Below the pieces are notes generated by a model. That model was not told the origin of the DNA and did no database searches. It saw nothing but the letters and a program-made list of their open reading frames with translations. Below, one piece after another: positions 33,237 to 59,331 of a stretch of DNA of 59,331 bases; position 1 is the first letter of the stretch, and every line of letters starts with the position of its first letter. The stretch comes from Candidatus Kapaibacterium sp. (GTDB taxonomy: Bacteria; Bacteroidota; Ignavibacteria; Kapaibacteriales; UBA961): assembly GCA_017302855.1 (NCBI GenBank), contig JAFLBY010000002.1, positions 1 to 59,331 on the forward strand, written 5' to 3'. The translations under genes were made by a program, and so were the position numbers.

Positions 33237-35180
33237 TCATGGTGCAGACACTTTCTCCAAAAAATATGTTTTCATCTTCCCTTTGCCTTTGATTTCCATT
33301 TCACCACGCGGAATAAACCGTAGCGACAGGTCGTGACCTGTCGCTACGGCACGCATAAAATCTGCGCTACAATGGATTTTTCCTACTTCGCCATGTGATT
33401 CCATTCTGCTTGCGGTGTTCACTGCATCGCCCCATAAATCAAAACTAAATTTCTTGTCACCGATAACTCCACCTATCGCTTCTCCGCTGTGAATACCTAT
33501 CCGCACACCTATTTCGCCTATCGCTTCTATCCAGGATATATCGCCAAGATCAGAAGGTATGCTTATGTGTAAAGTATTCATTCGATCTAATAATGCTATG
33601 CTCGCAGCAGCAGCGCGGAGTGCATGATCGTCTTGAACAATGGGGGCTCCCGACACTGCCATATAGGCATCGCCTATCGTTTTTATCTTCTCTAAACCAT
33701 ACTGCTCCATTATATTATCTGCGGTACTAAATATCGTGTTGAGCACATAAATTAAATGTTTTGGTGGCACTATACTTGCTATACGTGTAAAATTTACTAA
33801 ATCCATAAATAACACACTTACCGAAGGATAACTGTCTGCTATAAATGTTTCTTTTTTCAATAAACGCTCAGCGATTGTCGGGGGCAAAACATTATGCAGT
33901 AATTTCTCTTGTTCTTCAATACGAGCTTGACTGGCAGCTCGCTCAATTGCTAATCTTTTTTCTTGTTCGGCTATTTTCCGTTCATTTTCTCTTTGTTCGG
34001 CTTTTCGTTGGGCACCTTCTATATTGATTTGCTCTTTTATTGTGTCGAAGAATTTGCGTGCCTCATATGCTTTTTGCCAATCTTCAATTTGTGAATATAA
34101 TGTTTCAAGGGACTCATAGGCAGTTAGGGTAATATTTTTAATACCATGAAGGATGCTTATTTCCACTGCTTGTAAAAGATATTCTTCGGCTTTTTTCGGT
34201 GAATATCCATGATATGCTTTATCAGACAATAAATCACCCAAACCATTGAGCCAATGTAATTGTGGATAGATAGCACTAATCTCCACAGAATCATGATATG
34301 CTTGTATTAAATACTCATATGCCTTATCATATTCGCCTATATTTTTATAAACATGTCCGATATTTCCGCGAGCGACAAGAGCATCGCGTTTTTCACCAAG
34401 TTCTAATTGTAATGCTAATGCCCGTTGATATAACTCTAAAGCATGCTCAAATTCTTTAAGACGAAAATACACTCCACCTATACTGCTGAGAGCAAAAGCA
34501 ATGGAAACCTTATCTTGGATCATTTCAAAAATGGATAAAGCACGAAGAAAACATTCGAGAGCACGCTCATGCTCACCAAATACCTGATGCACTACTCCTA
34601 TATTCATTGTATTACCGGCAACTCCACTCTTGTTATCCAATTCTTCATGTAATATCAGAGCCCGATGAAAATATTCTAATGCTGTCGTATAGTCCGTTAA
34701 TTCTTTATAGGCAATTCCCATTTGACCTGTTATTTTTGCCAATAATTCTTTATTATGAATAATTTCGTTTTTTTCTAATGCTATGCGATAATTATCAAGA
34801 GCAAGATTGTACTCAGATTTGTGTAGATAGGCATCACCCATATTAATATATAAATGAACTAACCGCAAAGTATTACCTATACGCTCGGATATTTCGATTC
34901 CTGCTTGGGCATAGACAAGGGATTGATGAAAATTATGGCGGGAAAGTTCCAGTGAATTAAGTCGGTTATAGGCATGAGCAATTGCACCAAACACTTTATA
35001 AAGTACGGAATTATTATCCTTTTCATGCCCTAAATCATTTCTATGAGTGTACGGCTCTAACATTTGTATCACGTTAAGGGCTTCTTTTTCTGCATCTTCA
35101 TACCGTACATTATCATGATTGTCTCTTGCATTATTTAATGCTATTTCTGAAAGGACAAGAAGTTCCCGGATATCATTCAT
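33237..35180 (-). CDS. TPR-repeat class III adenylate cyclase
   Basis: Same architecture, with [40 protein letters not shown]. It has the long-arm subtype insertion (IPSDLGDISWIEAIGEIGV). Confidence 0.9.
   Translation of the reverse strand: MNDIRELLVLSEIALNNARDNHDNVRYEDAEKEALNVIQMLEPYTHRNDLGHEKDNNSVLYKVFGAIAHAYNRLNSLELSRHNFHQSLVYAQAGIEISERIGNTLRLVHLYINMGDAYLHKSEYNLALDNYRIALEKNEIIHNKELLAKITGQMGIAYKELTDYTTALEYFHRALILHEELDNKSGVAGNTMNIGVVHQVFGEHERALECFLRALSIFEMIQDKVSIAFALSSIGGVYFRLKEFEHALELYQRALALQLELGEKRDALVARGNIGHVYKNIGEYDKAYEYLIQAYHDSVEISAIYPQLHWLNGLGDLLSDKAYHGYSPKKAEEYLLQAVEISILHGIKNITLTAYESLETLYSQIEDWQKAYEARKFFDTIKEQINIEGAQRKAEQRENERKIAEQEKRLAIERAASQARIEEQEKLLHNVLPPTIAERLLKKETFIADSYPSVSVLFMDLVNFTRIASIVPPKHLIYVLNTIFSTADNIMEQYGLEKIKTIGDAYMAVSGAPIVQDDHALRAAAASIALLDRMNTLHISIPSDLGDISWIEAIGEIGVRIGIHSGEAIGGVIGDKKFSFDLWGDAVNTASRMESHGEVGKIHCSADFMRAVATGHDLSLRFIPRGEMEIKGKGKMKTYFLEKVSAP
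33317..33348. repeat. CDS-embedded 32-nt palindrome, variant B (perfect 15-bp arms)
   Basis: CCGTAGCGACAGGTC-GT-GACCTGTCGCTACGG encodes AVATGHDLSLR. Four base pairs differ from variant A, and all four are compensated. Confidence 0.95.
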
Positions 35181-35590
35181 TATTGTACTTTCTCCAAAAA
35201 ATAGGTTTTCATTTTTCCTTTGCCTTTTATTTCCATTTCACCACGCGGAATAAACCGTAGAGACGGTGCGTGCACCGTCTCTACGGCATGTTTAAATTCT
35301 TCCGACACATGGATTTTTCCTGCTGCGCCATGACTTTCCATCCGGCTTGCTGTGTTCACAGCATCGCCCCATAAATCATAGAGGAACTTGTTCTCGCCGA
35401 CACACCTGCTGCTGCCGGACCACAATGCAGACCAATGCGCACTTCTATTTCGGGAATATTCTCTATCCATGATTTGTCACCCAATGAATCGGGAGTGGAA
35501 CTTACTGTTAAGTTTTTCATCATGTCAAGAAGTTTGAATGTGGCTTGTGTGTCAGTATCGTGGTTTTGTTCGCCACTTCTTGCCCAACCA
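35180..35590 (-). pseudogene. 5'-truncated, frameshifted cyclase remnant (long-arm subtype)
   Basis: Two overlapping ORF pieces (..[44 protein letters not shown] / ..[62 protein letters not shown]) match the last ~135 aa of the 38425 and 53950 genes. There is a 1-nt deletion near 35400, and homology stops near 35590. Confidence 0.85.
35255..35286. repeat. CDS-embedded 32-nt palindrome, variant A (perfect 15-bp arms)
   Basis: CCGTAGAGACGGTGC-GT-GCACCGTCTCTACGG. Confidence 0.95.
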
Positions 35591-35737
35591 TACAGTAAGT
35601 TATTGAAATTCATAAAAATGTATGAAATGATAACAATATTTTTATGCACAAAAATACAATTTCTATGCTCTATACAGGAAAAAAACCGTAAGTTGCAGCT
35701 AACTGTGTTTATGTATTCAATTTCGGGAGAAAAAACC

Positions 35738-36408: not shown

Positions 36409-38385
36409 TTAATCCGCCTTCTCCAAAAAATAGGTCTTCATCGTTCCTTTTCCTTTGATTTCGATTTCACCACGCGGAACGAATATGAATTGAGAATTGT
36501 CGCCAGTTAATTCTTTGTCCTTCATTCTTAATTCTTCATTCCTCATTCTTAATTCTCTTACAAAATCTTCCGTACAATGAATTTTCCCTGCTTCGCTGTG
36601 AGATTCCATTCTACTTGCAGTGTTTACGGCATCGCCCCAAAGGTCATATGTGTATTTATTCTTACCGATTACACCCGCCACGACCTCGCCGCTATGTATG
36701 CCTATACGCAAGCGAAGCGGCTTGCCGGTCAGGAAGGGGTTAAAGCGGCTGACGGCTTCCATCATGTCGAATGCCATAATAGCCAAAGCCTGTGCATGGT
36801 CAGAGCGTGGTATGGGTGCTCCGCTTACCACCATATAGGCGTCGCCCATTGTTTTAATTTTTTCTAAGCCATACTTTTCGGCTAATTCGTCGAAAATCGT
36901 GAAAATTGCGTTAAGCCCCTTCACGAGTTCCTCGGGAGAAATGTCTTGTGATAATGAGGTAAATTCGACAATATCGGCGAAAAGTACCGAAACGGTATCG
37001 AGTTTATCGGCGATGAGCTTTGTACCCCCCAGTATCCTGCCGGCAATTTCCGGCGGCAGCACATTGTGAAGCAATTGTTCGGTCGCTTCGAGCCGTGTGC
37101 GCTCAATAGCCGCCTGTTTTTCACGTTCTGCCGTTTTGCGTTCGTAGTTCAGTCGCTCGGCTTGTTTTTTTGTTTCTTCGTTTAATACCTCTTTTTCAAG
37201 AGCATAAAAGAGTTGATGATGGGTGAATGCTTTTTCCCAGTTGCGGGTTAGCTGAAAGAGGACTGCCAGACAATAGTGCGTTTCGTAAAGTTCTTTTTTG
37301 GCACCAAGCTCTTCGAAGAGTTCCTTTGCTCGCAGAAAATATCGTTCGGCAAGGACAGGATCATATTCGGCATTGTCGTCGTCCGAATACAATCCGGCTA
37401 TATTCTGTGTGCAGTTGGCTATTCCAGCGATATTGTTGACCTCGGTATAGAGTTCTAATGCCTTGTTGCAATAATCCATTGCACCCGCATGGTCGCCCAT
37501 CATTTTGCAGTTGCTCCCGATATTGACATACACATCGGCGACTCCTGCCTTGTTCCCAAGCTCATTGTGAATGCCGAGAGCACGCTTATAATATTGCAAT
37601 GACATTGTATAGTCATGAAGATAAAAATGCACGGCAGCTATATTACCGGTTAAGGATGCTGCTCCCACTTTGTCGCCGAGTTGCTCTTTTGTCATAAGTG
37701 CCTTGTGGTAGTAGTCGAGGGCGATGTTATACTCCTTCATGGCAAGATAGATATTCCCGATGTTACCTAATTGCGTAGCGGTGTCTGACATATTATTGGA
37801 CGCTTCCGCAAGGGCGAGGGATTTATGGAACAAAGACAAAGCATTTGGGTAATCTGCAAACAGTAGGAAGATATTGCCGAGATTGCCTGTGTGAATAGCG
37901 ATAGCAGCGGCATTGCCGGTTTGTTCAGCCAATGAGAGGGCTTTTTGGTAATATACCAGCGCGTTCGGATAGTCGGACATGAGGAGAAAAAGGTTGCCAA
38001 GATTGCCCGTGTGATCAGCCACACCACGCCAATTTCCGAGTTCTTCGTCCAATGCGAGTGCCTTGCGGTAATATTCTGCCGCAGTTGTATAGTCCGAGAG
38101 GTTGCGGTAAGCGCGTCCGATATTGCCGAGGGTAATGGCAATTCTACCGGAGTCGCCTATGACTTCAAATGATTCGTGCGCCAATTGATACTGCTCGAGA
38201 GCTTTCAAATATTCTCCGTGTCGTTGGGCGATATTGCCTATAAACACAGCAGCCCTTCCGGCTTGCAATGAGTTTCCTGATAGCCGGGCGACATTTAGGG
38301 CGGCGACGGCAGCAGATTCGGCTTCTTCGTAGCACCCATGTTGGAAATGTTCGTCGGCTGTTTTATTGAGTTCTTCGGCTGTCAT
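36409..38385 (-). CDS. TPR-repeat class III adenylate cyclase
   Basis: [40 protein letters not shown]. It carries the AT-rich insertion subtype (RELRMRNEELRMKDKELTGDNSQF). Confidence 0.9.
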   Translation of the reverse strand: MTAEELNKTADEHFQHGCYEEAESAAVAALNVARLSGNSLQAGRAAVFIGNIAQRHGEYLKALEQYQLAHESFEVIGDSGRIAITLGNIGRAYRNLSDYTTAAEYYRKALALDEELGNWRGVADHTGNLGNLFLLMSDYPNALVYYQKALSLAEQTGNAAAIAIHTGNLGNIFLLFADYPNALSLFHKSLALAEASNNMSDTATQLGNIGNIYLAMKEYNIALDYYHKALMTKEQLGDKVGAASLTGNIAAVHFYLHDYTMSLQYYKRALGIHNELGNKAGVADVYVNIGSNCKMMGDHAGAMDYCNKALELYTEVNNIAGIANCTQNIAGLYSDDDNAEYDPVLAERYFLRAKELFEELGAKKELYETHYCLAVLFQLTRNWEKAFTHHQLFYALEKEVLNEETKKQAERLNYERKTAEREKQAAIERTRLEATEQLLHNVLPPEIAGRILGGTKLIADKLDTVSVLFADIVEFTSLSQDISPEELVKGLNAIFTIFDELAEKYGLEKIKTMGDAYMVVSGAPIPRSDHAQALAIMAFDMMEAVSRFNPFLTGKPLRLRIGIHSGEVVAGVIGKNKYTYDLWGDAVNTASRMESHSEAGKIHCTEDFVRELRMRNEELRMKDKELTGDNSQFIFVPRGEIEIKGKGTMKTYFLEKAD

Positions 38386-38424: not shown

Positions 38425-40524
38425 TTATTCTTTCTCCAAGAAATAGGTCTTCATTATGCCTTTGCCTTTGATGTCAATTTCACCACGCGGGATAAACCGT
38501 AGAGACGGGGCATGCACCGTCTCTACGGCATGTTTAAATTCTTCCGACACATGGATTTTCCCCGCTTCACCGTGACTTTCCATTCTGCTTGCGGTGTTCA
38601 CGGCATCGCCCCATAAATCATAAAGAAACTTGTTCTCGCCAACAACACCCGCCGCAACCGGACCGCAATGCAGACCAATGCGCACTTCTATTTCGGGAAT
38701 ACTCTCTATCCAACTTCTATCACCATATTCAGGAGGAAAACTTACCACTAAGTTTTGCATGACATCAAGCAGTTTGAGTGCGGCGTTTGCGGCTCTTTGG
38801 GCATGGTCTTCTTGCACAATCGGTGCGCCGGCAACTGCCATGTAGGCATCACCGATGGTTTTGATTTTCTCCAAGCCGAACTCGCGCATCACAGCATCTG
38901 CAGAAGAGAAGATGGCATTGAGTAAATATACAAGTTGCTGCGCGGAAATAGTTGTCGAGAGTTTTGTAAAATCAACAATATCCATGAAGAGAACTGAAAC
39001 ACAATCGTAGGTATCCGCTATGGGATTTTCACCTTTTATCAGGCGTTGAGTTATTTCTTCGGGAAGGATATTGTTCAGGATGCGCTTCTCTGCGATGGCG
39101 CGTGTGCGCTCTATTTCAATTTCTTTTTCGCGCTCGGCGGCTTGCCTACGTTGCTCCATGAGTCCGGCTTGCTTATGTGCTTCCTCGCTTTGGACTTCTT
39201 TTTCTAATTCATGGTATTTCTCGAAATGGTACTGACAATCTTTCCAACGTTCTAATTGTTTGTATAACTCTGCTATGGTTTTATGAAATTCATATAAGTA
39301 ATTTTTCGTTCCGAGTTCCTCATTCATGCTAATAGCCCGCAGGAGGTATTCCTCTGCTTTTACAGGATCATAACCGTCGAATTCCTGCTTTGCATAGGTT
39401 TCTCCGATGGTGCCGAGATGTCTTGCCACTCCTGCTTTGTTCCCGAGTTCTTCATCGAGCGCTAATGCCTTGCCATAGTACTCCAAAGCACGGGCATAGT
39501 CCGAGAGATTCTGATGCACAATCCCGATATTGCCCAGCCAACTTGCCACGCCTGCTTTATAACCGAGTTCTTCATGGAGCGCTAATGCCTTGCCGTAATA
39601 GTCCAAGGCATGGGGATAGTCCGAGAGATTCGCAAGCACACCCCCGATGTTGCCGAGATTTCTTGCCATGCCTCCTTTGTTGCCGAGTTCTTCATTGAGT
39701 GATAATGCCTTGCCATAGTACTCCAAGGCACGAGCATAGTCCGAGATACTCTGATGCACAATCCCGATATTGCCAAGATTAGCTGCCACCCCTACTTTGT
39801 TGCCGAGTTCTTCATGGAGTGATAATGCCTTGCCCAAGTACTCCAAGGCACGGGAATAGTCCGAGAGATTCTGATAGACATTCCCGATATTGCCCAGCCA
39901 ACTTGCCACGCCTGCTTTATTGCCGAGTGCTTCATTGAGTGATAATGCCTTGCCCAAGTACTCCAAGGCAAGCGCATAGTCCGAGAGATTCGCTTGCACA
40001 ATCCCGATGGTGCCGAGATGTCTTGCCACGCCTGCTTTATTGCCGAGTGCTTCATCGAGTGCCAATGCCTTACCATAGTACTCCAAGGCAAGGGAATAGT
40101 CCGAGAGATTCCGATGCACATTCCCGATATTACCGAGAGATGTTGCCACCGCTGCTTTGTTGCCGAGTTCTTCATGGAGTGCTAATGCCTTACCATAGTA
40201 CTCCAAGGCAAGCGCATAGTCCGAGAGATTCCGATGCACAAGCCCGATATTGCCGAGTGCTTTGGCTTGCAGTTCTTTGCTTTCTATTCGTTCTGCAAGT
40301 GTAAGGGCTTGTTCGGCATACGGCAATGCATCTTGCGCCATGCCACGCCGACGCAGAGATTCTGAGAGAGCAAGCAGGATGCGACAGTGGAGTTCCGGTT
40401 CATTGATAAGAGCATTTTCTGCAAGCAGTTCGCGTGCTTGGGTTTCGGCTTGATCATAGTCAGAACCGCTCTGAATCATTGCTTCGAGTTCTTCTACTTT
40501 GGTTTTGAGTTCGTCGGCTGTCAT
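38425..40524 (-). CDS. TPR-repeat class III adenylate cyclase
   Basis: Seven near-uniform 40-aa TPR units, then [40 protein letters not shown]. Confidence 0.9.
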   Translation of the reverse strand: MTADELKTKVEELEAMIQSGSDYDQAETQARELLAENALINEPELHCRILLALSESLRRRGMAQDALPYAEQALTLAERIESKELQAKALGNIGLVHRNLSDYALALEYYGKALALHEELGNKAAVATSLGNIGNVHRNLSDYSLALEYYGKALALDEALGNKAGVARHLGTIGIVQANLSDYALALEYLGKALSLNEALGNKAGVASWLGNIGNVYQNLSDYSRALEYLGKALSLHEELGNKVGVAANLGNIGIVHQSISDYARALEYYGKALSLNEELGNKGGMARNLGNIGGVLANLSDYPHALDYYGKALALHEELGYKAGVASWLGNIGIVHQNLSDYARALEYYGKALALDEELGNKAGVARHLGTIGETYAKQEFDGYDPVKAEEYLLRAISMNEELGTKNYLYEFHKTIAELYKQLERWKDCQYHFEKYHELEKEVQSEEAHKQAGLMEQRRQAAEREKEIEIERTRAIAEKRILNNILPEEITQRLIKGENPIADTYDCVSVLFMDIVDFTKLSTTISAQQLVYLLNAIFSSADAVMREFGLEKIKTIGDAYMAVAGAPIVQEDHAQRAANAALKLLDVMQNLVVSFPPEYGDRSWIESIPEIEVRIGLHCGPVAAGVVGENKFLYDLWGDAVNTASRMESHGEAGKIHVSEEFKHAVETVHAPSLRFIPRGEIDIKGKGIMKTYFLEKE
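38497..38528. repeat. CDS-embedded 32-nt palindrome (variant A, one inner mismatch)
   Basis: CCGTAGAGACGGGGCATGCACCGTCTCTACGG has 12-bp perfect outer arms. Confidence 0.9.
39405..40250. repeat. Tandem 120-bp in-frame repeats (7 TPR units of 40 aa)
   Basis: An exact 120-bp period is visible, e.g. cttgccac at 39422 and 39542. Long identical stretches such as ccttgccatagtactccaaggca and tagtccgagagattc recur. Confidence 0.85.
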
Positions 40525-40593
40525 GGTCTAAACTGTGATTTGTGTGATTGTTTTGATTACTGTGATTGTTTTTGTATTTGATATTTTTTCATT

Positions 40594-40619
40594 TAGGACA
40601 GCCACATAGGGCTGTCCTA
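40594..40619. repeat. Intergenic REP-like palindrome
   Basis: TAGGACAGCC-ACATAG-GGCTGTCCTA forms a 10-bp stem. Confidence 0.85.
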
Positions 40620-40628
40620 CAAATCCTA

Positions 40629-46647: not shown

Positions 46648-48390
46648 TCAATCCTGTTCAGACAATTTTTCCAAAAAATAGGTCTTCATCATGCCTTTGC
46701 CTTTGATTTCCATTTCACCACGCGGGCTAAACCGTAGGGACGGTTCATGCACCGTCTCTACGGCATGTTTAAATTCTTCCGAAATATGGATTTTCCCCGC
46801 TTCGCCATGACTTTCCATTCTTGCTGCTGTGTTCACGGCATCGCCCCATAAATCATAAGCAAATTTCTTCTTTCCAATTACTCCTGCCACAACCTCTCCG
46901 CTATGAATGCCAATACGGATTTGAATTTCCTCGCCTGTGGAAATTGAACGAAATTCCTTCATTGCTTCCATCATTTCTATTGCCATAAGTGCCATTGCTT
47001 GGGCGTGGTCTTCACAGGGTTCGGGTGCGCCACTTACGACCATGTACGCATCGCCAATAGTCTTGATTTTTTCGAGTCTGTGTTTTTCGGCGAGCGTGTC
47101 GAAAGCGGAGAAGATTCTATCTAATCCGGCAACAAGTTCTTCCGCTGAAATGCGCGAAGAGAGTTTTGTAAATCCAACGATATCCGCAAAAAGCACGGAG
47201 ACATTTTCTAATTTCTCGGCTATCAAGCTTTCGCCGGCAATCATTCTATGAGCAATACTTGGCGGTAGAACATTGTGTAAGAGTTGCTCAGTGGCTTCGT
47301 GTTTGGCACGCTCTACGGCAAGGTTTTTATCGCGTTCTGTTTGCTTGCGTTCAAAGTCCCATCGCTCTGCTTGCTTCTTGGTTTCCGCGCTTTGCACTTC
47401 TTTTTCCAACTCGTGGTATTTCTTATAATTGTGGTATGCTTCCGTATTCCGTTCCAGTTTCTCATAGAAATCTGCAAGGGACTTATAAATCTCAGACTGC
47501 TCATTCTTTGCACCGATTTCTTCAAACAAAGAAAGTGATTTGAGCAGATATTCTTCTGCTTTAGCTGCATCATATTCCCCAAACTCCTGTTTTGCATACA
47601 CGGTCCCAATATTTCCAGTAACTACGGCAAGGCTGGATTTCCTTCCGAGTTGATTATTGAGCTCAAGAGTTTGCTTATAGTATTCCAATGCCTTGTCGTA
47701 GGAGCCAAGATTCTTATACACACTCCCTATGTTTCCTGTAACTCTGGCAATGGCAGATTTCTCCCCGAGTTCATTGTGGAGGTCAAGGGCATGCATATAG
47801 TATTCTAATGCAATGTCGTAAGAGCCAAGAGAATTATGCACATTCCCGATATTCCCCGTAACGATGGCAATGCCTGATTTATCTCCGCGTTCATTATTGA
47901 GAGCGAGAGCTTGTACATAGTATTCCAATGCCTTGTCATAGGAGCCAAGATTAGAATACACATTTCCGATATTCCCCGTAACTGCCGCAATACCGTTTTT
48001 TTCCCCGAGTTCATTGTGGAGAGCAAGAGCTTGAACGAAGTATTCCAATGCCTTCTCGTACGAGCCAACATTCTTATACACAATCCCGATATTCGCTGTA
48101 ACGTTGGCAATGCCTAATTTATCGGGAATAGATTGAAAACGTACAAGAGCATCGTTGAGAAGTACGAGCGCAGAGTTGTAATCGCCCTGCCTCCAAGCGG
48201 CTTCACCAAGTATGCGCATAGATTTAGCACAAAGCATGAGCCGATCGGTGGCCTGTTGAGCCTCGCCTGGTGGTAGCTCATTACAGTATTGCAATACCTC
48301 TCTGGAAAGGAGTTCAGATTCTGCATAGTTGCCTTTTTTCATCTCGGTATCGGCGAGCATGAGTTTTTCTTGTAATTGTTCGAGTCTCAT
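46648..48390 (-). CDS. TPR-repeat class III adenylate cyclase
   Basis: Four 40-aa TPR units, then [40 protein letters not shown]. Confidence 0.9.
   Translation of the reverse strand: MRLEQLQEKLMLADTEMKKGNYAESELLSREVLQYCNELPPGEAQQATDRLMLCAKSMRILGEAAWRQGDYNSALVLLNDALVRFQSIPDKLGIANVTANIGIVYKNVGSYEKALEYFVQALALHNELGEKNGIAAVTGNIGNVYSNLGSYDKALEYYVQALALNNERGDKSGIAIVTGNIGNVHNSLGSYDIALEYYMHALDLHNELGEKSAIARVTGNIGSVYKNLGSYDKALEYYKQTLELNNQLGRKSSLAVVTGNIGTVYAKQEFGEYDAAKAEEYLLKSLSLFEEIGAKNEQSEIYKSLADFYEKLERNTEAYHNYKKYHELEKEVQSAETKKQAERWDFERKQTERDKNLAVERAKHEATEQLLHNVLPPSIAHRMIAGESLIAEKLENVSVLFADIVGFTKLSSRISAEELVAGLDRIFSAFDTLAEKHRLEKIKTIGDAYMVVSGAPEPCEDHAQAMALMAIEMMEAMKEFRSISTGEEIQIRIGIHSGEVVAGVIGKKKFAYDLWGDAVNTAARMESHGEAGKIHISEEFKHAVETVHEPSLRFSPRGEMEIKGKGMMKTYFLEKLSEQD
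46732..46763. repeat. CDS-embedded 32-nt palindrome (variant A', two imperfections)
   Basis: CCGTAGGGACGGTTCATGCACCGTCTCTACGG. Confidence 0.9.
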
Positions 48391-48545: not shown

Positions 48546-50786
48546 TCATGGTTCAGACACTTTCTCCAAAAAATATGTTTTCATCATTCCTTTGCCTTTG
48601 ATTTCCATGTCACCACGCGGAATAAACCGTAGAGACGGGGCGTGCACCGTCTCTACTGCATGTTTAAATTCTTCCGAAATATGGATTTTGCCCGCTTCGC
48701 CGTGACTCTCCATCCGGCTTGCCGTATTCACTGCATCGCCCCATAAATCAAAACTAAATTTCTTGTCACCGATAACTCCACCTATCGCTTCACCGCTGTG
48801 AATACCTATCCGCACACCTATTTCGCCTATCGATTCTATCCAGGATATATCACCAAGTTCAGAAGGTATGTTTATGTGTAAAGTATTCATTCGATCTAAT
48901 AATGCTATGCTCGCTGAGGCGGCGCGAATTGCATGGTCTTCTTGTGATTCAGGCGCACCCGCTACTGCCATATAGGCATCGCCTATCGTTTTTATCTTCT
49001 CTAAACCATACTGCTCCATTATATTATCTGCGGCACTGAATATAGAGTTCAGAAGATATATCAAATGCTTCGGCGGTACTATACTCGCTATGCGTGTGAA
49101 ACCAACTAAATCCATAAATAACACACTTACCGAAGGATAACTGTCTGCTATAAATGTTTCTTTTTTCAATAAACGCTCAGCGATTGTAGGAGGCAAAACA
49201 TTGTGCAGTAATTTCTCTTGTTCTTCTATGCGGGCTTGGCTTTCAGCGCGCTCAACAGCTATACGTTTTTCCCGCTCTGCTGTTTTACGTTCATAATCCA
49301 ATCGCTCGGCTTGTTTTTTTGATTCTTCACTCTGGACTTCTTTCTCTAATTCATGATAGCGTTTATAGTGAACTGCAAAGTCCTTCCAACGTTCTTGTTT
49401 CTCATATAGCTCGGCAAGGGATTTGAGAAACTCATATTCTTCTTTTTTTGCACCTATTTCTTCCAACATGGAAATTGCTTGCAGCAAATACTCTGTTGCT
49501 TTTTCTGCATCGTAACTCTCATATTTCTCATTCGCATACACAAGTCCTATATTACCTGTATTTATTGCTATACTGATTTTAACTCCTAATTCTTCTTCAA
49601 TTGCAAGGGCGCGTTTATAATACTCTAATGCCTTAGGATAGTCGGACAGACAATAGTAAACAGTCCCTATGTCACCAATATTTTTTGCTACGCCCCCTCT
49701 TGTACCGAGTTCTTCATTGAGTACAAGTGCCTTGATATAGTATTCCAACGCTTTAGAATAGTCTAAAAGATTCTGATATATAAGACCAATGTTTGCAAGA
49801 TCTATGGCAATGCCTTTTTTATTACCAAGTTCTTTATCAAACTCAAGGGCTTTCGTATAGTATTCCAACGCTTTGGAATAATCAAAAAGATTCTGATATA
49901 TAAGTCCGATATTGCCTGTATGTCGTGCAATACCCGATTTATTATCAAGACTTTCACACAGCACAAGAGCCTTTGTATAAAATTCTAAAGCCTTGGGATA
50001 ATCCGAAAGTTTATTATATACCATTCCTAAGTTACCCGCACAGGTTTCTACCCCTCTTTTGTTACCGAGTTCTTCCATGAGCATAAGCGATTTTGCGTAA
50101 TACTCCAATGCCTTAGTGTAGTCCGAGAGAAAAAAATATACATTGCCAATATTACCGTTAACTTCTGCCATCCCTTTTTTATTCCCGAGTTCTTCATAAA
50201 GAGCTTGGGCGCAAGTAAAACACTGTAATGCCTTAGGAAGATCCGAAATAACTCCGTAAAGAATTCCTATATTGCTATGGTTAATTGCTTGCCATGATTT
50301 ATTTCCAGTCTCTTCGTTAATCTTAAGTGCTTGGGTGTAATACTCCAAGGCTTTTGGATAGTCCGAAATATAATCATACACAATTCCAATATTAGAGAGA
50401 ACACCTGCAGCACTCTGCTTATTACCAAGTTCTTCATAGCATCTAAGTGCTTGATTATAACACTCCAAGGCTTTGGCATAATCTGAGAGAAGCCGATACA
50501 CATTCCCGATATTGCCTAATGCTTGAGCTTGCAGTTCTTTGCTTTCTATTTGTTCGGTAATGGTAAGCGCTTGTTCGGCATAAGGCAATGCGTCCTTTGC
50601 CAAACCGCGTTGCCACAACGATTGCGAGAGAGCAAGCAGGATGCGGCAATGGAGCTCCGATTCATTCGCAATAGTGTCATCAACAAGCAGCTCCTGCGCT
50701 TGGGTTTCGGCTTGAGCATAGTCCTTGCCGGATTTAATTAAAACTTCAAGTTCTTCTACTTTGGTTTTGAGTTCTTCGTGGGTCAT
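48546..50786 (-). CDS. TPR-repeat class III adenylate cyclase
   Basis: Start set at ATG 50786 (MTHEELK), which is preceded by AGGAGAG. Eight 40-aa TPR units, then [40 protein letters not shown]. Long-arm subtype. Confidence 0.9.
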   Translation of the reverse strand: MTHEELKTKVEELEVLIKSGKDYAQAETQAQELLVDDTIANESELHCRILLALSQSLWQRGLAKDALPYAEQALTITEQIESKELQAQALGNIGNVYRLLSDYAKALECYNQALRCYEELGNKQSAAGVLSNIGIVYDYISDYPKALEYYTQALKINEETGNKSWQAINHSNIGILYGVISDLPKALQCFTCAQALYEELGNKKGMAEVNGNIGNVYFFLSDYTKALEYYAKSLMLMEELGNKRGVETCAGNLGMVYNKLSDYPKALEFYTKALVLCESLDNKSGIARHTGNIGLIYQNLFDYSKALEYYTKALEFDKELGNKKGIAIDLANIGLIYQNLLDYSKALEYYIKALVLNEELGTRGGVAKNIGDIGTVYYCLSDYPKALEYYKRALAIEEELGVKISIAINTGNIGLVYANEKYESYDAEKATEYLLQAISMLEEIGAKKEEYEFLKSLAELYEKQERWKDFAVHYKRYHELEKEVQSEESKKQAERLDYERKTAEREKRIAVERAESQARIEEQEKLLHNVLPPTIAERLLKKETFIADSYPSVSVLFMDLVGFTRIASIVPPKHLIYLLNSIFSAADNIMEQYGLEKIKTIGDAYMAVAGAPESQEDHAIRAASASIALLDRMNTLHINIPSELGDISWIESIGEIGVRIGIHSGEAIGGVIGDKKFSFDLWGDAVNTASRMESHGEAGKIHISEEFKHAVETVHAPSLRFIPRGDMEIKGKGMMKTYFLEKVSEP
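48627..48658. repeat. CDS-embedded 32-nt palindrome (variant A, two mismatches)
   Basis: CCGTAGAGACGGGGCGTGCACCGTCTCTACTG. Confidence 0.85.
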
Positions 50787-53953: not shown

Positions 53954-55932
53954 AGATATTTCTCCAAGAAATAGGTTTTCATTTTTCCTTTGCCTTTAAT
54001 TTCTATTTCGCCACGGGGGATAAACCGTAGGGACGGTTCATGCACCGTCTCTACGGCATGTTTAAATTCTTCCGAAACATGGATTTTTCCTGCTTCGCCG
54101 TGGGATTCCATCCTGCTTGCCGTGTTCACGGCATCGCCCCATAAATCATACAGAAACTTGTTCTCGCCGACAACACCCGCCGCCGCAGGACCACAATGCA
54201 GACCAATGCGAACTTCTATTTCGGGAATACTCTCTATCCAACTTCTATCACCATATTCAGGAGGAAAACTTACCACTAAGTTTTGCATGACATCAAGGAG
54301 TTTGAGTGCTGCGTTTGCGGCGCGATGGGCATGGTCTTCTTGCATAATCGGTGCACCGGCAACCGCCATGTATGCATCGCCTATGGTCTTGATTTTCTCC
54401 AAACCGAACTCGCGCATTACGCCATCGGCAGCAGTAAAAATAGCATTGAGCAAATGCACAAGTTGCTGCGCGGAAATAGTTGTCGAGAGTTTTGTAAAAT
54501 CAACAATGTCCATGAAGAGAACAGAAACTCCATCGTAGTGGTCCGCTATGGGATTCTCCCCTTTTATCAGGCGTTGCGTAATTCCTTCAGGAAGGATATT
54601 GTTCAGGATGTTCTCGCGCTCTTGGAAGCGTGTACGGTCTATCTCCATTTCTTTTTCGCGCTCGGCGACTTGCTTCTGTTGCTCCATGAGCATTGCTTTT
54701 TTCTTCGCTTCTTCGCTTTGGACTTCTTCTTTTAGTTCGTGATATTTTGTCTTGTGCTTATATGCCTCTTCCCAGCGTTTTTGTTGCTCGTACAGTTCAG
54801 CAAGACCTTTATGTGTTTCATACTGAAAATTCTTTGCACCGATATCTTCAAACCCGCTTAGTACTTTGATCAGATATTCTTCTGCTTTTGCAGGGTCGTA
54901 GCCATCGAAGTCCTGCTGTGCGTAGGTTGCTCCGATGTTGCCGAGATTAATTGCCACACCTGCTTTGTTGCCGAGTTCTTCATCGAGTGCTAGTGCCTTG
55001 CCGTAGTACTCCAAGGCACGGGCATAGTCCGAGAGATTCCTATGCACAGTCCCGATATTGCCGAGATTGTTTGCCACGCCTGCTTTGTTGCCGAGTTCTT
55101 CTTCGAGTGTTAATGCCTTGCCGTAGTACTCCAAGGCACGGGCATAGTCCGAGAGAGAATGATGCACAGTCCCGATGTTGCCGAGATGTCTTGACACGCC
55201 TGCTTTGTTACCAAGTTCTTCATCAAGCGCTAATGCCTTGCCATAGTACTCCAAAGCACGGGAATAGTCCGAGAGAGAATGATAGACAATACCGATGTTA
55301 CCGAGATTAGTTGCCATGCCTGTTTTTTTGCCGAGTTCTTCATCGAGTGATAATGCCTTGCCATAGTACTCCAAGGCAAGCGCATAGTCCGAGAGATTCT
55401 GATGGACAAGACCGATATTGCCAAGACAACTTGCCACACCTGCTTTGTTGCCGAGTTCTTCATGGAGTGATAATGCCTTACTATAGTACTCCAAAGCACG
55501 GGCATAGTCCGAGAGATTCTGATGCACAATCCCGATATTACCGAGGTATATTGCCACGCCTGCTTTGTTACCGAGTTCTTCATTGAGCGCTAATGCCTTG
55601 CCATAGTACTCCAAAGCACGGGAATAGTCCGAGAGATTCGCATGCACAGTCCCGATATTGCCGAGTGTTTTGGCTTGCAGTTTTTTACTATCTATGAGTT
55701 CGGCAAGGGCAAGTGCTTGTTCGGCGTATGGCAATGCATCTTTTGCCATACCACGCCGCCACAACGATTGCGAGAGAGCAAGCAGGATGCGGCAGTGGAG
55801 CTCCGATTCATTCATAAGAGCATTTTCTGCAAGCAGTTCCCGCGCTTGGGTTTCAACAAGAGCATAGTCAGAACCGCTCTGAATCATTGCTTCGATTTCT
55901 TCTACTTTGATTTTGAGTTCGTCGTGGGTCAT
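53950..55932 (-). CDS. TPR-repeat class III adenylate cyclase
   Basis: Start set at MTHDELK (55932). Six near-uniform 40-aa TPR units, then [40 protein letters not shown]. Confidence 0.9.
   Translation of the reverse strand: MTHDELKIKVEEIEAMIQSGSDYALVETQARELLAENALMNESELHCRILLALSQSLWRRGMAKDALPYAEQALALAELIDSKKLQAKTLGNIGTVHANLSDYSRALEYYGKALALNEELGNKAGVAIYLGNIGIVHQNLSDYARALEYYSKALSLHEELGNKAGVASCLGNIGLVHQNLSDYALALEYYGKALSLDEELGKKTGMATNLGNIGIVYHSLSDYSRALEYYGKALALDEELGNKAGVSRHLGNIGTVHHSLSDYARALEYYGKALTLEEELGNKAGVANNLGNIGTVHRNLSDYARALEYYGKALALDEELGNKAGVAINLGNIGATYAQQDFDGYDPAKAEEYLIKVLSGFEDIGAKNFQYETHKGLAELYEQQKRWEEAYKHKTKYHELKEEVQSEEAKKKAMLMEQQKQVAEREKEMEIDRTRFQERENILNNILPEGITQRLIKGENPIADHYDGVSVLFMDIVDFTKLSTTISAQQLVHLLNAIFTAADGVMREFGLEKIKTIGDAYMAVAGAPIMQEDHAHRAANAALKLLDVMQNLVVSFPPEYGDRSWIESIPEIEVRIGLHCGPAAAGVVGENKFLYDLWGDAVNTASRMESHGEAGKIHVSEEFKHAVETVHEPSLRFIPRGEIEIKGKGKMKTYFLEKYL
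54025..54056. repeat. CDS-embedded 32-nt palindrome (variant A')
   Basis: CCGTAGGGACGGTTCATGCACCGTCTCTACGG. Confidence 0.9.
54940..55665. repeat. Tandem 120-bp in-frame repeats (6 TPR units)
   Basis: Same unit family as 39405..40250, with long identical strings between units and between the two genes. Confidence 0.85.
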
Positions 55933-56108: not shown

Positions 56109-58016
56109 TCATGGTTCAGACACTTTCTCCAAAAAATAGGTTCGCATTGTACCCTTACCTTTAATGTCGATTTCTCCGCGTGGGATAAACCGTAGGGACG
56201 GTTCATGCACCGTCTCTACGGCATGTTTAAATTCTTCCGAAACATGGATTTTACCTGCTTCGCCATGACTTTCCATCCTGCTTGCCGTGTTCACGGCATC
56301 GCCCCATAAATCATAACTCAAACGTTTAGTACCAATAATCCCGGCTATTGCTTCACCGCAAGCAATACCTATGCGCAAACTTAAAGGTATTCCTTCTACA
56401 GGAGAATGTATATTTGGAGCAAGTGAAAGAATTGCACACGCAAAATTTGCTGCGCGTTGAGCATGATCCGGTGTCCATTTCGGTATGCCTGCTACAGCCA
56501 TATATGCGTCCCCTATGGTTTTTATTTTTTCGACTCCATATCGAGCAGCACATTCATCAAATGCAGAAAAAGCTGTATTTAAAAATTCCAATAAAAGTTC
56601 AGGTTCTATACTTTGCGATAATGATGTAAAATTGACAATATCAATAAATATAATGGAAACGGAAGAGAAGTAATCCGCAATTTTTTCTCGATTCATCATA
56701 CGATTCACAATTGATTCCGGTGCTATATTAGTAAGAAGTTGTGTCTCAATTTCCTTTTTTCTGATATTTTTTTCCGACTTCATTTTTTCGGCAAGTTCCT
56801 TTTCTTTGTCGGTAATTTTTGACTCTGTCATAGTAATATATCGTTTTAATAGCATCAAGGATTCTATGACATTTCCTTCACGATCATATACCTCGGCAAG
56901 TAATTTATATGGGGTTAAATCTTGCTTATCATGTTTTTCATCCGATTCTGTTATTGACTTATTCAAATAATGAATAGCTTTTTGAGAGTCGTACAAAGAA
57001 GAATTTTCCGCACTATATATTGTTCCAAGCATTGAGTGAATATAACTTGTTTTATGAGGGAATTTACCTGCTTGTGTAATAATGTTCAACAGAATATTCT
57101 CTGCCTCTGCATAACGATGTAATCGGATAAGCGTGCGAGCAATATTACATCGAACATCGGCAAGTTGTTCAGGTTCGCCCAGTGCCACTGTCTTTGTTTC
57201 GATTTCTTTTTCTATCTCAAGTGCCTTTTCAAAATTTCCTCGAACAACCTCAATATTTGCCAATGATGTTTTATTCCGTAAAAGCCATGAAATATTATTC
57301 AGTTCTTCATTAATAGTTGCTGCTTGCATCAAGTAATTTTCTGCTGCAAGATAATCACCCATGTTAATATAAAGCACACCAAAGGTATGAAGTATTGAAC
57401 TTTGAGCCATTTTATTGCCAAGCTCTTGAGCTAAATGTAAAGCACGTGAGCTATGTTCAAGCCCATCTGCATAATATCCAAGTTTTGCATACGATTGTCC
57501 AAGATTTATTTGTGCACCAAGCTCAACACGTGTATCACCATAATATTGTGCAATTGCTATGCACTCAATATAACGCTCTATAGACTCTGACATCTTGCCC
57601 ATAGTAGATTCCAGATTAGCAATATTGGTGAGTATCGATGCATACTGAAGTCGGTCTTCATTGTTTTTTACAATTGCTAATGCTTTGTTATAATTGAGAT
57701 AAGCGTCATCATAACGATTTGTGTAATAATAAATCACACCTAATGAGTTATATGCTTTTTGTAATATATTTTCATCGCTGTTTTGTTGCGCAAGCTCAAT
57801 TAATTGTAAGGCGATTTCTTCTGCTTCCGTATATCGAGCACTCCGAGTACATATTGTTACCAGAACACCAAGCAATTGCATCACCATATTTGGATTTTGT
57901 TCCTTTTCATAAATCTGTAATAATTCATTACAACGATTTTCAGCACCATTTATATCGCCGCGGTCATACATTGCCTTTATACGATCCACTTCATTACTGT
58001 TATGTTCTTTTTTCAT
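56109..58016 (-). CDS. TPR-repeat class III adenylate cyclase (divergent TPR part)
   Basis: [40 protein letters not shown]. The TPR region is AT-richer and less regular than in the neighbouring paralogues. Confidence 0.9.
   Translation of the reverse strand: MKKEHNSNEVDRIKAMYDRGDINGAENRCNELLQIYEKEQNPNMVMQLLGVLVTICTRSARYTEAEEIALQLIELAQQNSDENILQKAYNSLGVIYYYTNRYDDAYLNYNKALAIVKNNEDRLQYASILTNIANLESTMGKMSESIERYIECIAIAQYYGDTRVELGAQINLGQSYAKLGYYADGLEHSSRALHLAQELGNKMAQSSILHTFGVLYINMGDYLAAENYLMQAATINEELNNISWLLRNKTSLANIEVVRGNFEKALEIEKEIETKTVALGEPEQLADVRCNIARTLIRLHRYAEAENILLNIITQAGKFPHKTSYIHSMLGTIYSAENSSLYDSQKAIHYLNKSITESDEKHDKQDLTPYKLLAEVYDREGNVIESLMLLKRYITMTESKITDKEKELAEKMKSEKNIRKKEIETQLLTNIAPESIVNRMMNREKIADYFSSVSIIFIDIVNFTSLSQSIEPELLLEFLNTAFSAFDECAARYGVEKIKTIGDAYMAVAGIPKWTPDHAQRAANFACAILSLAPNIHSPVEGIPLSLRIGIACGEAIAGIIGTKRLSYDLWGDAVNTASRMESHGEAGKIHVSEEFKHAVETVHEPSLRFIPRGEIDIKGKGTMRTYFLEKVSEP
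56190..56221. repeat. CDS-embedded 32-nt palindrome (variant A')
   Basis: CCGTAGGGACGGTTCATGCACCGTCTCTACGG. Confidence 0.9.
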
Positions 58017-58057
58017 AGTTTTATTTATTGATGTTTTTGACTAATTATTATAATAAT

Positions 58058-59331
58058 TCACTGATATTGTTCCAAAAAATATGTCTTCATTTTTCCTTTG
58101 CCTTTGATGTCCATTTCACCGCGGGGGATAAACCGTAGGGACGGTACCTGCACCGTCTCTACGGCACGCATAAAAGCTGCGCTACAATGAATTTTACCTG
58201 CTTCGCCGTGGGATTCCATTCTGCTTGCCGTGTTCACCGCATCGCCCCATAAATCATAGGCGAATTTCTTTTTGCCAATCACGCCGGCTACCACTTCTCC
58301 GCTGTGAATTCCGATGCGGATTTGCACTTCTTCACCGGTAGAAATTGACCGAAATTCTTTCATTTTTGCTACCATTTCAAGCGCAAAATTTGCCATCGTT
58401 TCTGCGTGGTCGGCACGTACTTCAGGCGCACCCGCAACCACCATATACGCATCACCAATCGTTTTGATTTTCTCCAAACCATACTTCTCGACCAGAGCGT
58501 CAAATTCACTGAAAATTCTATCGAGTCCTTCGACAAGTTCTTCAGGAGTAATGCTTTGCGAAAGTTTCGTAAAATTCACGATGTCGGCAAAAAGCACCGA
58601 CACGCTTGGGATTTTCTCAGCGATGAGCTGTGTGCCGTCGAGCATTCTTGCTGCTATGGTTGGGGGGAGTACATTGTGAAGTAATTGTTCCGTGGCTTGG
58701 TGTTTAGCATCAGCGGCTGCTTTGGCAAGTTCTATTGCTTTGCGTTGTTCGCGTATTGCCTCTTGCTTCTTTACTTCTTCGACATTTACTTCTTCTTTTA
58801 TCGCAATATGTTTTTTGTAGTGCGTGAAAGCATCTCCCAATCGTTGTTCTTGTTCATAAAGATCAGATAAGGTTTTGTGAAATTCAATCAATACTGCTTT
58901 ATATCCTATTCCTGTGCTTAGGTCAATAGCTCGCAGCAGGTATTCTTCCGCTTTATCGGGGTCGTAGCCATCGAAGTCCTGCTTAGCATACGTTGCTCCG
59001 ATATTGCCGAGCCAAGTTGCCATACCTGCTTTGTTATCAAGTTCTTCATCAAGTGCTAATGCCTTGCCCATGTACTCCAAGGCACGGGCATAGTCCGAGA
59101 GCTTTTGATGTACATTCCCGATATTGCCGAGAATAGATGCCACGCCTCGTTTGTTGTCCAGTTCTTCATTCAGTGATAATGCCCTGCCCATGTACTCTAA
59201 TGCACGGGAATAGTCCGAGAGATAATAATACACATTTGCGATGTTGCCGAGATCTATAGCCACGCCTGTTTTATTGCCGAGTTCTTCATCCAATGCTAAT
59301 GCCTTACCTATGTACTCCAAGGCACGGGGAT
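58058..59331 (-). CDS. TPR-repeat class III adenylate cyclase, 5' end beyond the window
   Basis: The frame stays open to the right edge. [40 protein letters not shown]. Confidence 0.85.
   Translation of the reverse strand, partial: PRALEYIGKALALDEELGNKTGVAIDLGNIANVYYYLSDYSRALEYMGRALSLNEELDNKRGVASILGNIGNVHQKLSDYARALEYMGKALALDEELDNKAGMATWLGNIGATYAKQDFDGYDPDKAEEYLLRAIDLSTGIGYKAVLIEFHKTLSDLYEQEQRLGDAFTHYKKHIAIKEEVNVEEVKKQEAIREQRKAIELAKAAADAKHQATEQLLHNVLPPTIAARMLDGTQLIAEKIPSVSVLFADIVNFTKLSQSITPEELVEGLDRIFSEFDALVEKYGLEKIKTIGDAYMVVAGAPEVRADHAETMANFALEMVAKMKEFRSISTGEEVQIRIGIHSGEVVAGVIGKKKFAYDLWGDAVNTASRMESHGEAGKIHCSAAFMRAVETVQVPSLRFIPRGEMDIKGKGKMKTYFLEQYQ
58133..58164. repeat. CDS-embedded 32-nt palindrome (variant A'')
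   Basis: CCGTAGGGACGGTACCTGCACCGTCTCTACGG. Confidence 0.9.

Follow-up and report, generated by a model that had tools for sequence, protein, structure and literature searches.

Why should nine copies of a cyclase gene carry a near-perfect palindrome within their coding sequence, and why do its two arms change together? A sequence-only reading of the window (the whole stretch of DNA that was analysed, 59,331 nt) had offered a REP/MITE-like element, a selected mRNA structure or a recombination-promoting cruciform as answers. We conclude that the palindrome is very probably an intragenic 'double-foot' REP (repetitive extragenic palindrome) of the RAYT subclass 2.4 type, a small selfish hairpin tied to RAYT transposases, that sits in frame in a tolerant loop and was copied with the gene family.

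Palindromes in the cyclase array

The window contains CC-GTAG...CTAC-GG palindromes, 32-mers, in nine minus-strand copies of a TPR/class III cyclase, while the number expected by chance was 0.00 (100 shuffles). As had been stated before, eight genes and a pseudogene are concerned; the former are PF00211 cyclase ORFs, the latter is a 3' fragment. The palindromes are on the coding (minus) strand, with the 3' end about 85 nt ahead of the end of the stop codon. The host genes encode a PF00211 catalytic domain (E 1e-50 to 1e-62) preceded by N-terminal TPR repeats, which identifies them as class III adenylate/guanylate cyclases. All nine palindromes have the GTAG...CTAC bounds that define a double-foot element (5' GT[AG]G / 3' C[TC]AC).

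Three of the nine have perfect 15-bp arms. The copy at 33318..33349 (core 33320-33347), whose start had been given as 33317, is a GTAGCGACAGGTC-AC-GACCTGTCGCTAC variant and lies in the cyclase at 33237-35180. The other two are main variants (GTAGAGACGGTGCACGCACCGTCTCTAC) at 35255..35286 in the cyclase 3' pseudogene fragment (~35181-35600) and at 44489..44520 in the cyclase at 44405-46558. One stem mismatch each is present at 38497..38528 (main variant, uncompensated; cyclase 38425-40524) and at 48627..48658 (cyclase 48546-50807), where the outer CC/GG pair is broken as well. The other copies have two mismatches: 46732..46763 (uncompensated, in the sense-strand 3' arm; cyclase 46648-48390), 54025..54056 (cyclase 53950-56031), 56190..56221 (cyclase 56109-58016) and 58133..58164 (cyclase 58058-59320, a gene that probably runs past the window end). 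No GTAGAGACG-type REP was seen outside the cyclases within the 59-kb window.

Compared with the main type the 33318 copy is changed at arm positions 7, 11, 13 and 14, and the complements at 26, 22, 20 and 19 match. Both this fourfold compensation and the accompanying switch of the peptide to AVATGHDLSLR had been noticed before and were reproduced, the latter by translation. The hairpin is followed by GGTTTATT or GGTTTATC, in line with the UUUAUU or UUUAUC reported earlier, except in one copy, which has GGTTTAGC.

The flanks of the palindrome are identical in all nine window copies, and the last 216 nt of the paralogues are 85% identical compared to 50-62% upstream. Two paralogues of the array, at 31284-33167 and 36409-38385, are free of the REP; the sequences on either side of the insert are highly similar. 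The span from N.ASRME to KGKG comprises 43 aa in ordinary cyclases versus 47 aa in the REP-bearing family. As a control, 64 ordinary cyclases from other genomes were compared over the matching stretch, where their best perfect inverted repeats measured just 5-8 bp. In an AlphaFold2 model the peptide runs from the last part of a helix through a 5-residue loop into the beginning of a strand. The encoded peptide is very probably a passenger sequence in a tolerant loop, and the hairpin needs no cyclase-specific function to fit the data.

A dispersed palindrome family and RAYT-like genes

In a scan of metagenomes, the pattern GTAGRGACG-N10-CGTCYCTAC matched at least 132 sites on at least 120 contigs, and among the matches listed none of the 132 sites showed a cyclase or adjoining cyclase motifs. 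Among these matches the contig GC ranged from 0.29 to 0.66, the flanks were unconserved, and the element was 28 nt long at 138 sites and 29 nt at 5. At least 77 distinct inner 10-mers were found. Inner complementarity in the matches listed was 78-95% at all five positions, central pair included, and the R/Y position was A..T or G..C without exception. The outer-arm variants GTAGCGACG, GTAGGGGCG and GTAGAGACA occurred in those palindrome-bearing loci, again among the matches listed; thus the 33320 variant fits the family. The sites listed were found in both orientations, intergenic and coding. Many were in frame within unrelated genes, where they read VETxxxxSL or RDxxxxVST; in-frame hosts among the listed matches were T9SS-tail proteins, a histidine kinase, a beta-galactosidase-like protein and a Der-like GTPase. 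Identical variants were shared by 8 of 17 within-contig pairs but by only 2.4% between contigs in the same set.

Because the non-cyclase copies show matching arms and a varied interior, the compensated covariation belongs to the REP family as such and does not speak for selection of an mRNA structure in the cyclases. For genome scans this means that perfect compensated covariation in coding DNA does not by itself point to a selected RNA structure, as REP families produce it wholesale. The dispersed family and the identical flanks support the earlier suggestion of a REP/MITE-like element, present in two or more variants, that entered a tolerant loop and was propagated along with the gene family.

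The window also harbors a gene for a RAYT / TnpA_REP-like Y1 transposase at 15125..15742 (+) with the subclass 2.4 motifs NHFH, WQ and YIINNP. The ORF is 5'-truncated with about 30 N-terminal residues missing; it matches NF047646 (E 8e-12), scores 23.7 bits with Pfam and has TnpArep (4ER8) as its best PDB match. Its HuH-WQ interval contains an insertion region of about 80 aa with 8-aa tandem repeats and small hairpins at 15171-15186, 15317-15340 and 15511-15532. These hairpins do not have the sequence of the cyclase REP, and the ORF is no more than a candidate for an active cognate transposase. In 8 of the 120 metagenome loci listed the palindrome itself lay inside the gene of a HuH/Y protein of about 200 aa, just past the HuH motif. 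All three representatives compared with NCBIfam matched NF047646, 'REP-associated tyrosine transposase' (E 7e-15 to 3e-17), and two of four scanned with Pfam reached the Y1_Tnp cut-off.

The consulted sections of Quentin, Siguier, Chandler and Fichant (2018, BMC Genomics 19:475; PMC6006769) describe double-foot REPs, 5' GT[AG]G ... C[TC]AC 3', as belonging to subclass 2.4 of TnpA_REP (RAYT), which equals Bertels group 4 and has the motifs NH[IFV]H, WQ and YIxNNP; such REPs lie in frame within tnpA_REP and other genes. According to the same sections they occur in Bacteroidota-related, cyanobacterial and other phyla, and a subclass 2.4-type RAYT accompanies the REP in our window, too. In contrast to the cases in these sections, the REP described here occupies one fixed codon position across several genomes in a cyclase family with a nine-copy paralogue array, and the RAYT gene of the window is truncated. 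That the length is strictly 28 nt and that even the central bases are complementary, as seen here metagenome-wide, is not found in the consulted sections of PMC6006769.

Di Nocera, De Gregorio and Rocco (2013, BMC Genomics 14:522; PMC3733652) catalogued intragenic GTAG REPs, which are likewise short, palindromic, RAYT-linked repeats with a GTAG terminus. Their sub-families are distinguished by complementary stem changes, and some copies in known genes add amino acids, presumably as loops or linkers. Yet their tag is unpaired and present at one end only, whereas here GTAG pairs with CTAC and the element is symmetric. The GTAG families of PMC3733652 come from Proteobacteria, Cyanobacteria, Chloroflexi and the PVC superphylum, with only CGTC repeats in Chlorobi and Bacteroidetes. 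The claim that a coding palindrome of this kind was new does not hold, because PMC3733652 and the consulted sections of PMC6006769 already report in-frame intragenic REPs and double-foot REPs of subclass 2.4. The present data add a tandem TPR-cyclase array in an Ignavibacteria/Kapabacteria-like genome to the known hosts of in-frame double-foot REPs (RAYT subclass 2.4). They also characterize a REP family that, among the matches listed, is 28 nt long (few 29), symmetric to the center and widespread in metagenomes.

For Rickettsia, Ogata et al. (2000; cited in PMC3733652) reportedly described palindromic elements (RPE) that lie in frame inside protein-coding genes. RPE-1 elements have about 100-150 bp and are restricted to Rickettsia. 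The likeness lies in selfish palindromic DNA that is tolerated in frame and adds a peptide segment at surface positions. While this passenger behaviour is alike, membership in RPE-1 was ruled out by the 28-nt length and the Ignavibacteria/Kapabacteria-like host; the present family is also linked to a RAYT. Quasipalindrome template-switch mutagenesis, said to have been worked out by Ripley and by Lovett and co-workers, is a general replication error and not a family of elements; in an imperfect palindrome one arm templates the other, which gives seeming compensation without selection of a structure. It would account for the upkeep of symmetry, but not for the GTAG feet, the 28-nt length and the RAYT association.

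Selection on mRNA, recombination or peptide

If the palindrome served as a cyclase-specific mRNA structure, i.e. an attenuator or terminator, a 3' stabiliser or a ribosome pause, the arms should co-vary through selection on the RNA stem. Very stable hairpins (-23 to -33 kcal/mol, z-scores -2.8 to -5.5), the UUUAUU directly after them, one copy that looks terminator-like in a simple scan and the retention of the site in several genomes with compensated changes are in line with this. On the other hand, the palindrome family occupies at least 132 non-cyclase sites and more than 100 unrelated contexts, intergenic and coding, in either orientation, and its complementarity reaches the central bases, which are unable to pair in a hairpin. 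Six of the nine copies in the window contain uncompensated mismatches, A.C on the mRNA; the synonymous change TCT -> TCC creates A.C on the mRNA strand, whereas a G.U would arise on the antisense strand alone. No more than three U follow one another in the tail, which codes for the conserved Phe-Ile of the following beta-strand. Moreover, the palindrome is absent from two paralogues in the array and from most cyclases outside it. Thus, the proposed attenuator, stabiliser or pause remained unsupported, and we regard such a selected structure as highly improbable. An intrinsic (Rho-independent) terminator or attenuator in particular was rejected, with three consecutive U in the tail GGUUUAUU/C and one of nine copies passing a permissive consensus scan. 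The region contained 10 terminator-like sites, fewer than the 17.5 in shuffles, and no part of the window matched Rfam 15 at gathering score.

A DNA cruciform or hairpin retained because it drives recombination and gene conversion between the cyclase paralogues would be compatible with the homogenised 3' 216 nt. It would also suit the mosaic structure near the palindrome, where the cyclase at 33237 resembles that at 48546 upstream and that at 58058 just 5' of the palindrome, and the truncated cyclase 3' remnant at 40629-40704, which begins near the palindrome position. However, the REP-free paralogues at 31284-33167 and 36409-38385 carry the same homogenised, highly similar flanks on both sides; homogenisation is therefore independent of the palindrome, and the earlier proposal of a recombination cruciform found no support. 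The homogenised block doubles as the most conserved protein segment, and family REPs also reside in single-copy genes, where exchange between paralogues is impossible. Any effect on recombination would be a side effect of the REP and not the reason for its presence; we consider retention for recombination very unlikely. That the main-type peptide is a functional protein motif with incidental DNA symmetry might be suspected because seven of the copies in the window preserve it, apart from single A/E/V changes. Yet homologues encode five other peptides at this position, each from its own 28-nt near-perfect palindrome, the loop of ordinary cyclases is shorter and unrelated, and the same peptides appear in unrelated proteins. 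These data effectively refute a functional peptide, for which the probability is close to nil.

Insertion, spread and turnover

We propose that the double-foot REP lodged once, in frame, in the C-terminus-proximal helix-to-strand loop of a TPR-cyclase subfamily of Ignavibacteria/Kapabacteria-like bacteria. There it reads GTA GAG ACG ... as V-E-T..., one of its two stop-free frames. Because 28 cannot be divided by three and the cyclase loop exceeds that of the closest REP-free relatives by just 3-4 residues, the insertion must have come with a small deletion or replacement. Gene duplication, together with conversion among the paralogues over their 3' 200 nt, probably then led to nine copies; in the window the element is present in nine homogenised 3' ends. 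REP copies may be renewed or replaced from the variant pool of the genome, or re-symmetrised by hairpin-templated copying, and any change in one arm would therefore look compensated. Copies that escape renewal would accumulate ordinary substitutions without compensation, and six of the nine in the window show decay of this kind.

Homologues from other genomes carry the REP at exactly one shared cyclase codon position in at least five genomes, with differing variants that are typical of the pool. At this site L001 has ...TTGCATGCAA... and L202 ...CAAAATTTTG..., the commonest and the third commonest variant of the pool among the matches listed; L203 has GTAGGGGCAGAAAATTTTCTGCCTCTAC and L204 GTAGGGGCAGTTGATGACCTGCCCCTAC. 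The peptides encoded there are AVATGHDLSLR, AVETLHATSLQ, AVETQNFASLQ, AVGAENFLPLR and AVGAVDDLPLH, each from a different 28-nt near-perfect palindrome. In 14 cyclase-site copies double changes affected 7 of 14 pairs, with 17 cells compared to 4.6 ± 1.7 in shuffles.

The persistence of the REP at one codon position in at least five genomes could reflect some benefit of the hairpin there. It is unlikely, though conceivable, that the REP is no passive relic and its interior is repeatedly exchanged in register between the GTAG/CTAC feet, by RAYT or REP-to-REP conversion, for the variant then prevailing in the genome, or that the hairpin has been co-opted for 3'-end formation of the cyclase mRNA. 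In-register exchange, if true, would rewrite a surface loop of 9-10 residues in a family of signalling enzymes while the frame is kept. A fixed cyclase site with a differing REP variant in each genome could be a natural marker for REP turnover. The known working of these cyclases is unaltered by the finding.

Finally, the array contains a second, intergenic family of double-foot REP-like palindromes that, as previously noted, start with GTAG; they are GTAG...CTAC elements of 28 nt like the cyclase copies. The copy at 40593..40620 (-) has the form GTAG(G/A)ACAGCC-CTATGT-GGCTGT(C/T)CTAC. Further full or half copies are located at 44237-44264, 44303-44330, 44369-44396, 46546-46573, 46612-46639, 48506-48533, 56002-56029 and 56068-56095. 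Every copy lies downstream of a cyclase stop codon, several of them within 66-nt tandem units.

The palindrome in the cyclase genes of the window

A pattern search for CCGTAGAGACGGTGCGTGCACCGTCTCTACGG with up to three mismatches found eight places in the window, while none was expected by chance, and a ninth palindrome at 33318-33349 was perfect and divergent in sequence. Together these account for all nine coding palindromes that the sequence-only reading had placed in the cyclase copies; its start of 33317 for the divergent one was off by one nucleotide, the actual position being 33318. All nine sites are on the minus strand within ORFs that combine N-terminal TPR repeats with a C-terminal class III cyclase domain (PF00211, E 1e-50 to 1e-62), one copy being a 3' pseudogene fragment. 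The flanks ...GCC before and GGTTTA... after the GTAG...CTAC core are common to all nine. The main-type sense strand, GCC GTA GAG ACG GTG CAC GCA CCG TCT CTA CGG, encodes an 11-residue peptide. The stem is perfect at 33318, 35255 and 44489, the latter two as originally described, and has one mismatch at 38497 and 48627 and two at 46732, 54025, 56190 and 58133. Compared with the main type, the 33318 copy indeed has four changed arm positions, and the four positions complementary to them are changed as well; its peptide is AVATGHDLSLR. The predicted fold of the perfect copies reached -29 to -33 kcal/mol with z-scores of about -5. The site search, the stem counts and the folding z-scores show that the palindrome was correctly observed and is a statistically solid feature.

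AlphaFold2 modelled the catalytic domain with a mean pLDDT of 89; in this model the palindrome-encoded residues 147-157 form a helix end, a loop of five residues and the start of the following strand. This very loop holds a hypervariable insert in relatives from MAGs of Ignavibacteria, Kapabacteria and Chlorobi, and is of a short 'ALKEKFVFEERGE' type in more distant cyclases. The stretch from N.ASRME to KGKG measured 43 residues in 64 ordinary cyclases of other genomes versus 47 in the window family, and its best perfect inverted repeat 5-8 bp versus arms of 10-15 bp. The control cyclases came from a protein-based scan of genome contigs and, among the matches listed, were mostly cyanobacterial and other cyclases. 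Yet with an element of 28 nt the loop is just 3-4 codons longer than in the nearest relatives without it.

Two paralogues, 31284-33167 and 36409-38385, carry a different insert at the very same position (minus strand; 105 nt at 31350-31454 and 84 nt at 36478-36561), which is purine-rich, then pyrimidine-rich, and encodes ELGMRNEELGMKDKELTGDNSQF(VIINSQF)IF. A long hairpin predicted for it was no better than in shuffles (z about -1), and it was dropped as a structured element. Homologues showed other repeat-like inserts at this loop, such as LMVNGEWLM...SLTINHLPLTII, PMTNDK heptad-like repeats (loci L005 and L008) and SPMSPISP repeats (cyclase locus L001). Repeat insertions seem to accumulate at this loop in general.

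A palindrome family linked to a transposase

Public metagenome contigs were scanned for GTAGRGACG-N10-CGTCYCTAC, which yielded at least 132 sites on at least 120 contigs. Cyclase motifs were beside none of the 132 sites listed; the palindrome is not cyclase-specific. Among the matches listed the GC content of the contigs ranged from 0.29 to 0.66 with unrelated flanks, the length was 28 nt at 138 sites and 29 nt at 5, and the R/Y position was always A..T or G..C with zero mismatches. The free inner 10 nt comprised at least 77 different sequences in the at least 132 sites. Each of the five inner positions was self-complementary at 78-95% of the 132 sites listed, including the central two bases, which are complementary there though unable to pair in a hairpin. 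The same loci held the outer-arm variants GTAGCGACG..., GTAGGGGCG... and GTAGAGACA..., and the divergent window variant with its core from 33320 (GTAGCGACAGG...) falls inside the range of this family. Identical variants made up 8 of 17 within-contig pairs versus 2.4% between contigs among the matches listed, the pattern expected for genome-specific repeat families.

At 50 of the 132 sites listed the element was within an open frame of at least 150 aa. The 17 longest of these ORFs read it in one of two stop-free frames, VETxxxxSL or (G/R)RDxxxxVST, and encode unrelated proteins, i.e. T9SS-tail proteins, a histidine-kinase ATPase domain, a beta-galactosidase-like enzyme and a Der-like GTPase linker. 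A target-site duplication was considered and discarded, the count of flanking 2-nt direct repeats (15 versus 7.9 expected) being unconvincing. About 16 of 127 metagenome sites extended the palindrome outward by at least 3 bp (3-11 bp). At the sites listed (L082-L201) the base preceding GTAG was T in 54 of 132 and that following CTAC was A in 64 of 132. A weak target preference, or insertion where a palindrome already existed, could account for the base bias and the extensions. At L084, L124, L126, L137, L172, L192 and L194 tandem duplications of a half-arm plus spacer adjoin complete 28-nt elements, e.g. ...ttttgcgtctctac atccgta ttttgcgtctctac..., which suggests slippage or half-element copying and may bear on how such palindromes gain symmetry.

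All-against-all clustering of the ORFs from the loci listed returned one recurrent small protein, present in eight metagenome loci, with a HuH motif (MPNHVH) and a WQ...YDHIIR...YIxNN region. Three representatives matched a sole NCBIfam family, NF047646 'REP-associated tyrosine transposase' (RAYT), at E 7e-15 to 3e-17, under the equivalog cut-off; the Pfam Y1_Tnp cut-off was reached by two of four representatives scanned. In all eight loci the palindrome was located within the transposase-like gene, directly after the HuH motif. A tblastn search with this protein matched the ORF 15125-15742 (+) of the window (NF047646 E 8e-12; Pfam Y1_Tnp 23.7 bits). Its best match of solved structure was E. 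coli TnpArep (PDB 4ER8), in an alignment covering the HuH and WQ/Y regions, and it has the subclass 2.4 motifs NHFH, WQ and YIINNP. Between HuH and WQ there are about 80 extra residues derived from small hairpins (15171-15186, 15317-15340 and 15511-15532) and 24-nt tandem repeats encoding HPDIYINN / HPDKHINN. Because the first about 30 residues of its homologues are missing, the 5'-truncated ORF is probably a relic beside a restriction/HEPN island. This low-GC (0.30-0.35) defence-type island at 10723-15116 (+) encodes an Eco57I-like N6 methylase, GmrSD-N (DUF262), HEPN (MAE_28990 / RiboL-PSP) and a BsuBI/PstI-type restriction endonuclease. The island stops 8 nt short of the RAYT gene, which it may have truncated.

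Covariation, spread and identity of the element

In cyclases of other organisms the codon position of the palindrome is occupied by different 28-nt variants, namely GTAGAGACGTTGCATGCAACGTCTCTAC (L001, in MAG GCA_016720145.1), GTAGAGACGCAAAATTTTGCGTCTCTAC (L202), GTAGGGGCAGAAAATTTTCTGCCTCTAC (L203) and GTAGGGGCAGTTGATGACCTGCCCCTAC (L204). In the 14 cyclase-site copies 91% of cells pair, and both sides changed in 7 of 14 pairs, amounting to 17 cells versus 4.6 ± 1.7 in shuffles, a value equalled by none of 500 shuffles. Thus the arm covariation is real. Among the metagenome sites listed the L001 interior is the commonest non-cyclase variant (16 of 132) and the L202 interior the third commonest (11 of 132), as expected if the REPs of cyclase sites were drawn from, or converted by, a general REP pool, and very unlikely under independent drift in place. 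From the symmetry up to the central bases we infer a copying or symmetry-restoring mechanism rather than selection for stem stability. RAYT-mediated exchange, REP-to-REP conversion or hairpin-templated synthesis of the quasipalindrome template-switch type would be candidates.

Of the three explanations offered for the palindrome, a selected mRNA structure could draw on the stable fold. However, every mismatch of the six imperfect copies is in the sense-strand 3' arm and uncompensated, and a synonymous TCT to TCC change produces A.C on the mRNA strand, which speaks against the mRNA stem still being under selection. The tail after the hairpin contains three consecutive U and codes for Phe-Ile of the next strand. 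Rfam families gave no match, and an intrinsic terminator was rejected, a single copy passing a permissive consensus scan. A DNA hairpin that promotes conversion between paralogues would agree with the 3' ends of the array. In seven full-length copies the final 216 nt have a mean identity of 85% versus 50-62% farther upstream, and there are mosaic tracts (33237-58016), in which copy c33237, for example, matches c48546, switches to c58058 and returns to c48546; the pattern points to gene conversion and thereby to concerted evolution of these ends. Yet the REP-free paralogues 31284-33167 and 36409-38385, with their different 84-105-nt insert at the same place, have the same flanks, so that the 3' homogenisation is independent of the palindrome. 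The data are best explained by the remaining proposal, a REP-like palindrome in a tolerant loop carried by the gene family. It would have lodged in the cyclase loop and spread as the 3' block underwent duplication and gene conversion.

The palindrome fits the sequence definition of a double-foot REP by Quentin et al. 2018 (PMC6006769), and its RAYT association is that of its family. According to Quentin et al. TnpA_REP subclass 2.4 is defined by the motifs NH[IFV]H, WQ and YIxNNP and has two REP types, and REP insertions in unrelated genes are already known. Di Nocera et al. 2013 (PMC3733652) catalogued GTAG-tagged REPs, among them sub-families set apart by complementary changes in the stem, as well as REPs located within genes of several species. 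An intragenic double-foot REP of a RAYT subclass 2.4 system, a described kind of element, is therefore the best explanation. No account was found in PMC6006769 and PMC3733652 of cyclases as a host gene family, of one site persisting across genomes with different REP variants or of the strict 28-nt centre-symmetric form observed metagenome-wide; these points are minor. A literal search of the literature for GTAGAGACG and related strings returned primers and shRNAs alone. A type IIS BsmBI/Esp3I site, resembled by GAGACG/CGTCTC, was dropped because the GTAGGGACG and GTAGGGGCG variants lack it. Integron attC, dif/Xer sites, a DGR-associated hairpin and CRISPR repeats were rejected in view of the irregular spacing, the variable yet symmetric interior and the lack of partner genes, and also because the RAYT link explains the data.

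Other repeats and rearrangements of the window

A second family of 28-nt double-foot palindromes, TTTGTAG(G/A)ACAGCC-CTATGT-GGCTGT(C/T)CTAC, is present on the minus strand at 40593-40620, 44237-44396, 46546-46639, 48506-48533 and 56002-56095. Its nine full or half copies each lie shortly 3' of a cyclase stop codon, all gene-oriented, and several are in 66-nt tandem units with the common spacer GACATAAAATGAAATACAAAAGAAACAATGTCCGGAC, a BIME-like cluster. The array is split by a 1068-aa BNR/sortilin-like gene at 40729-43935 (-) with a GC content of 0.49-0.52 versus about 0.40 around it and double-foot REP-like elements on either side. Directly downstream of this gene, 76 nt of a cyclase 3' end are left at 40629-40704 (-), starting near the palindrome position.

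Three TPR + LuxR/GerE regulators are encoded at 21316-23388, 27405-29435 and 29623-31287 (-). In the latter two the C-terminal about 200 aa are nearly identical, and the N-terminal about 70 aa closely match the neighbouring TPR-cyclases (MTIEQLRI.IEELEALLNSGKDFEEVEKK...), which suggests domain shuffling between regulators and cyclases. Finally, the intergenic stretch 9581-9616 after gene 7951-9195 forms a perfect 16-bp stem with a 4-nt loop (ACGAATGTCCGCTTTT TTTC AAAAGCGGACATTCGT) and has T/A runs on either side, giving it the look of a bidirectional terminator.
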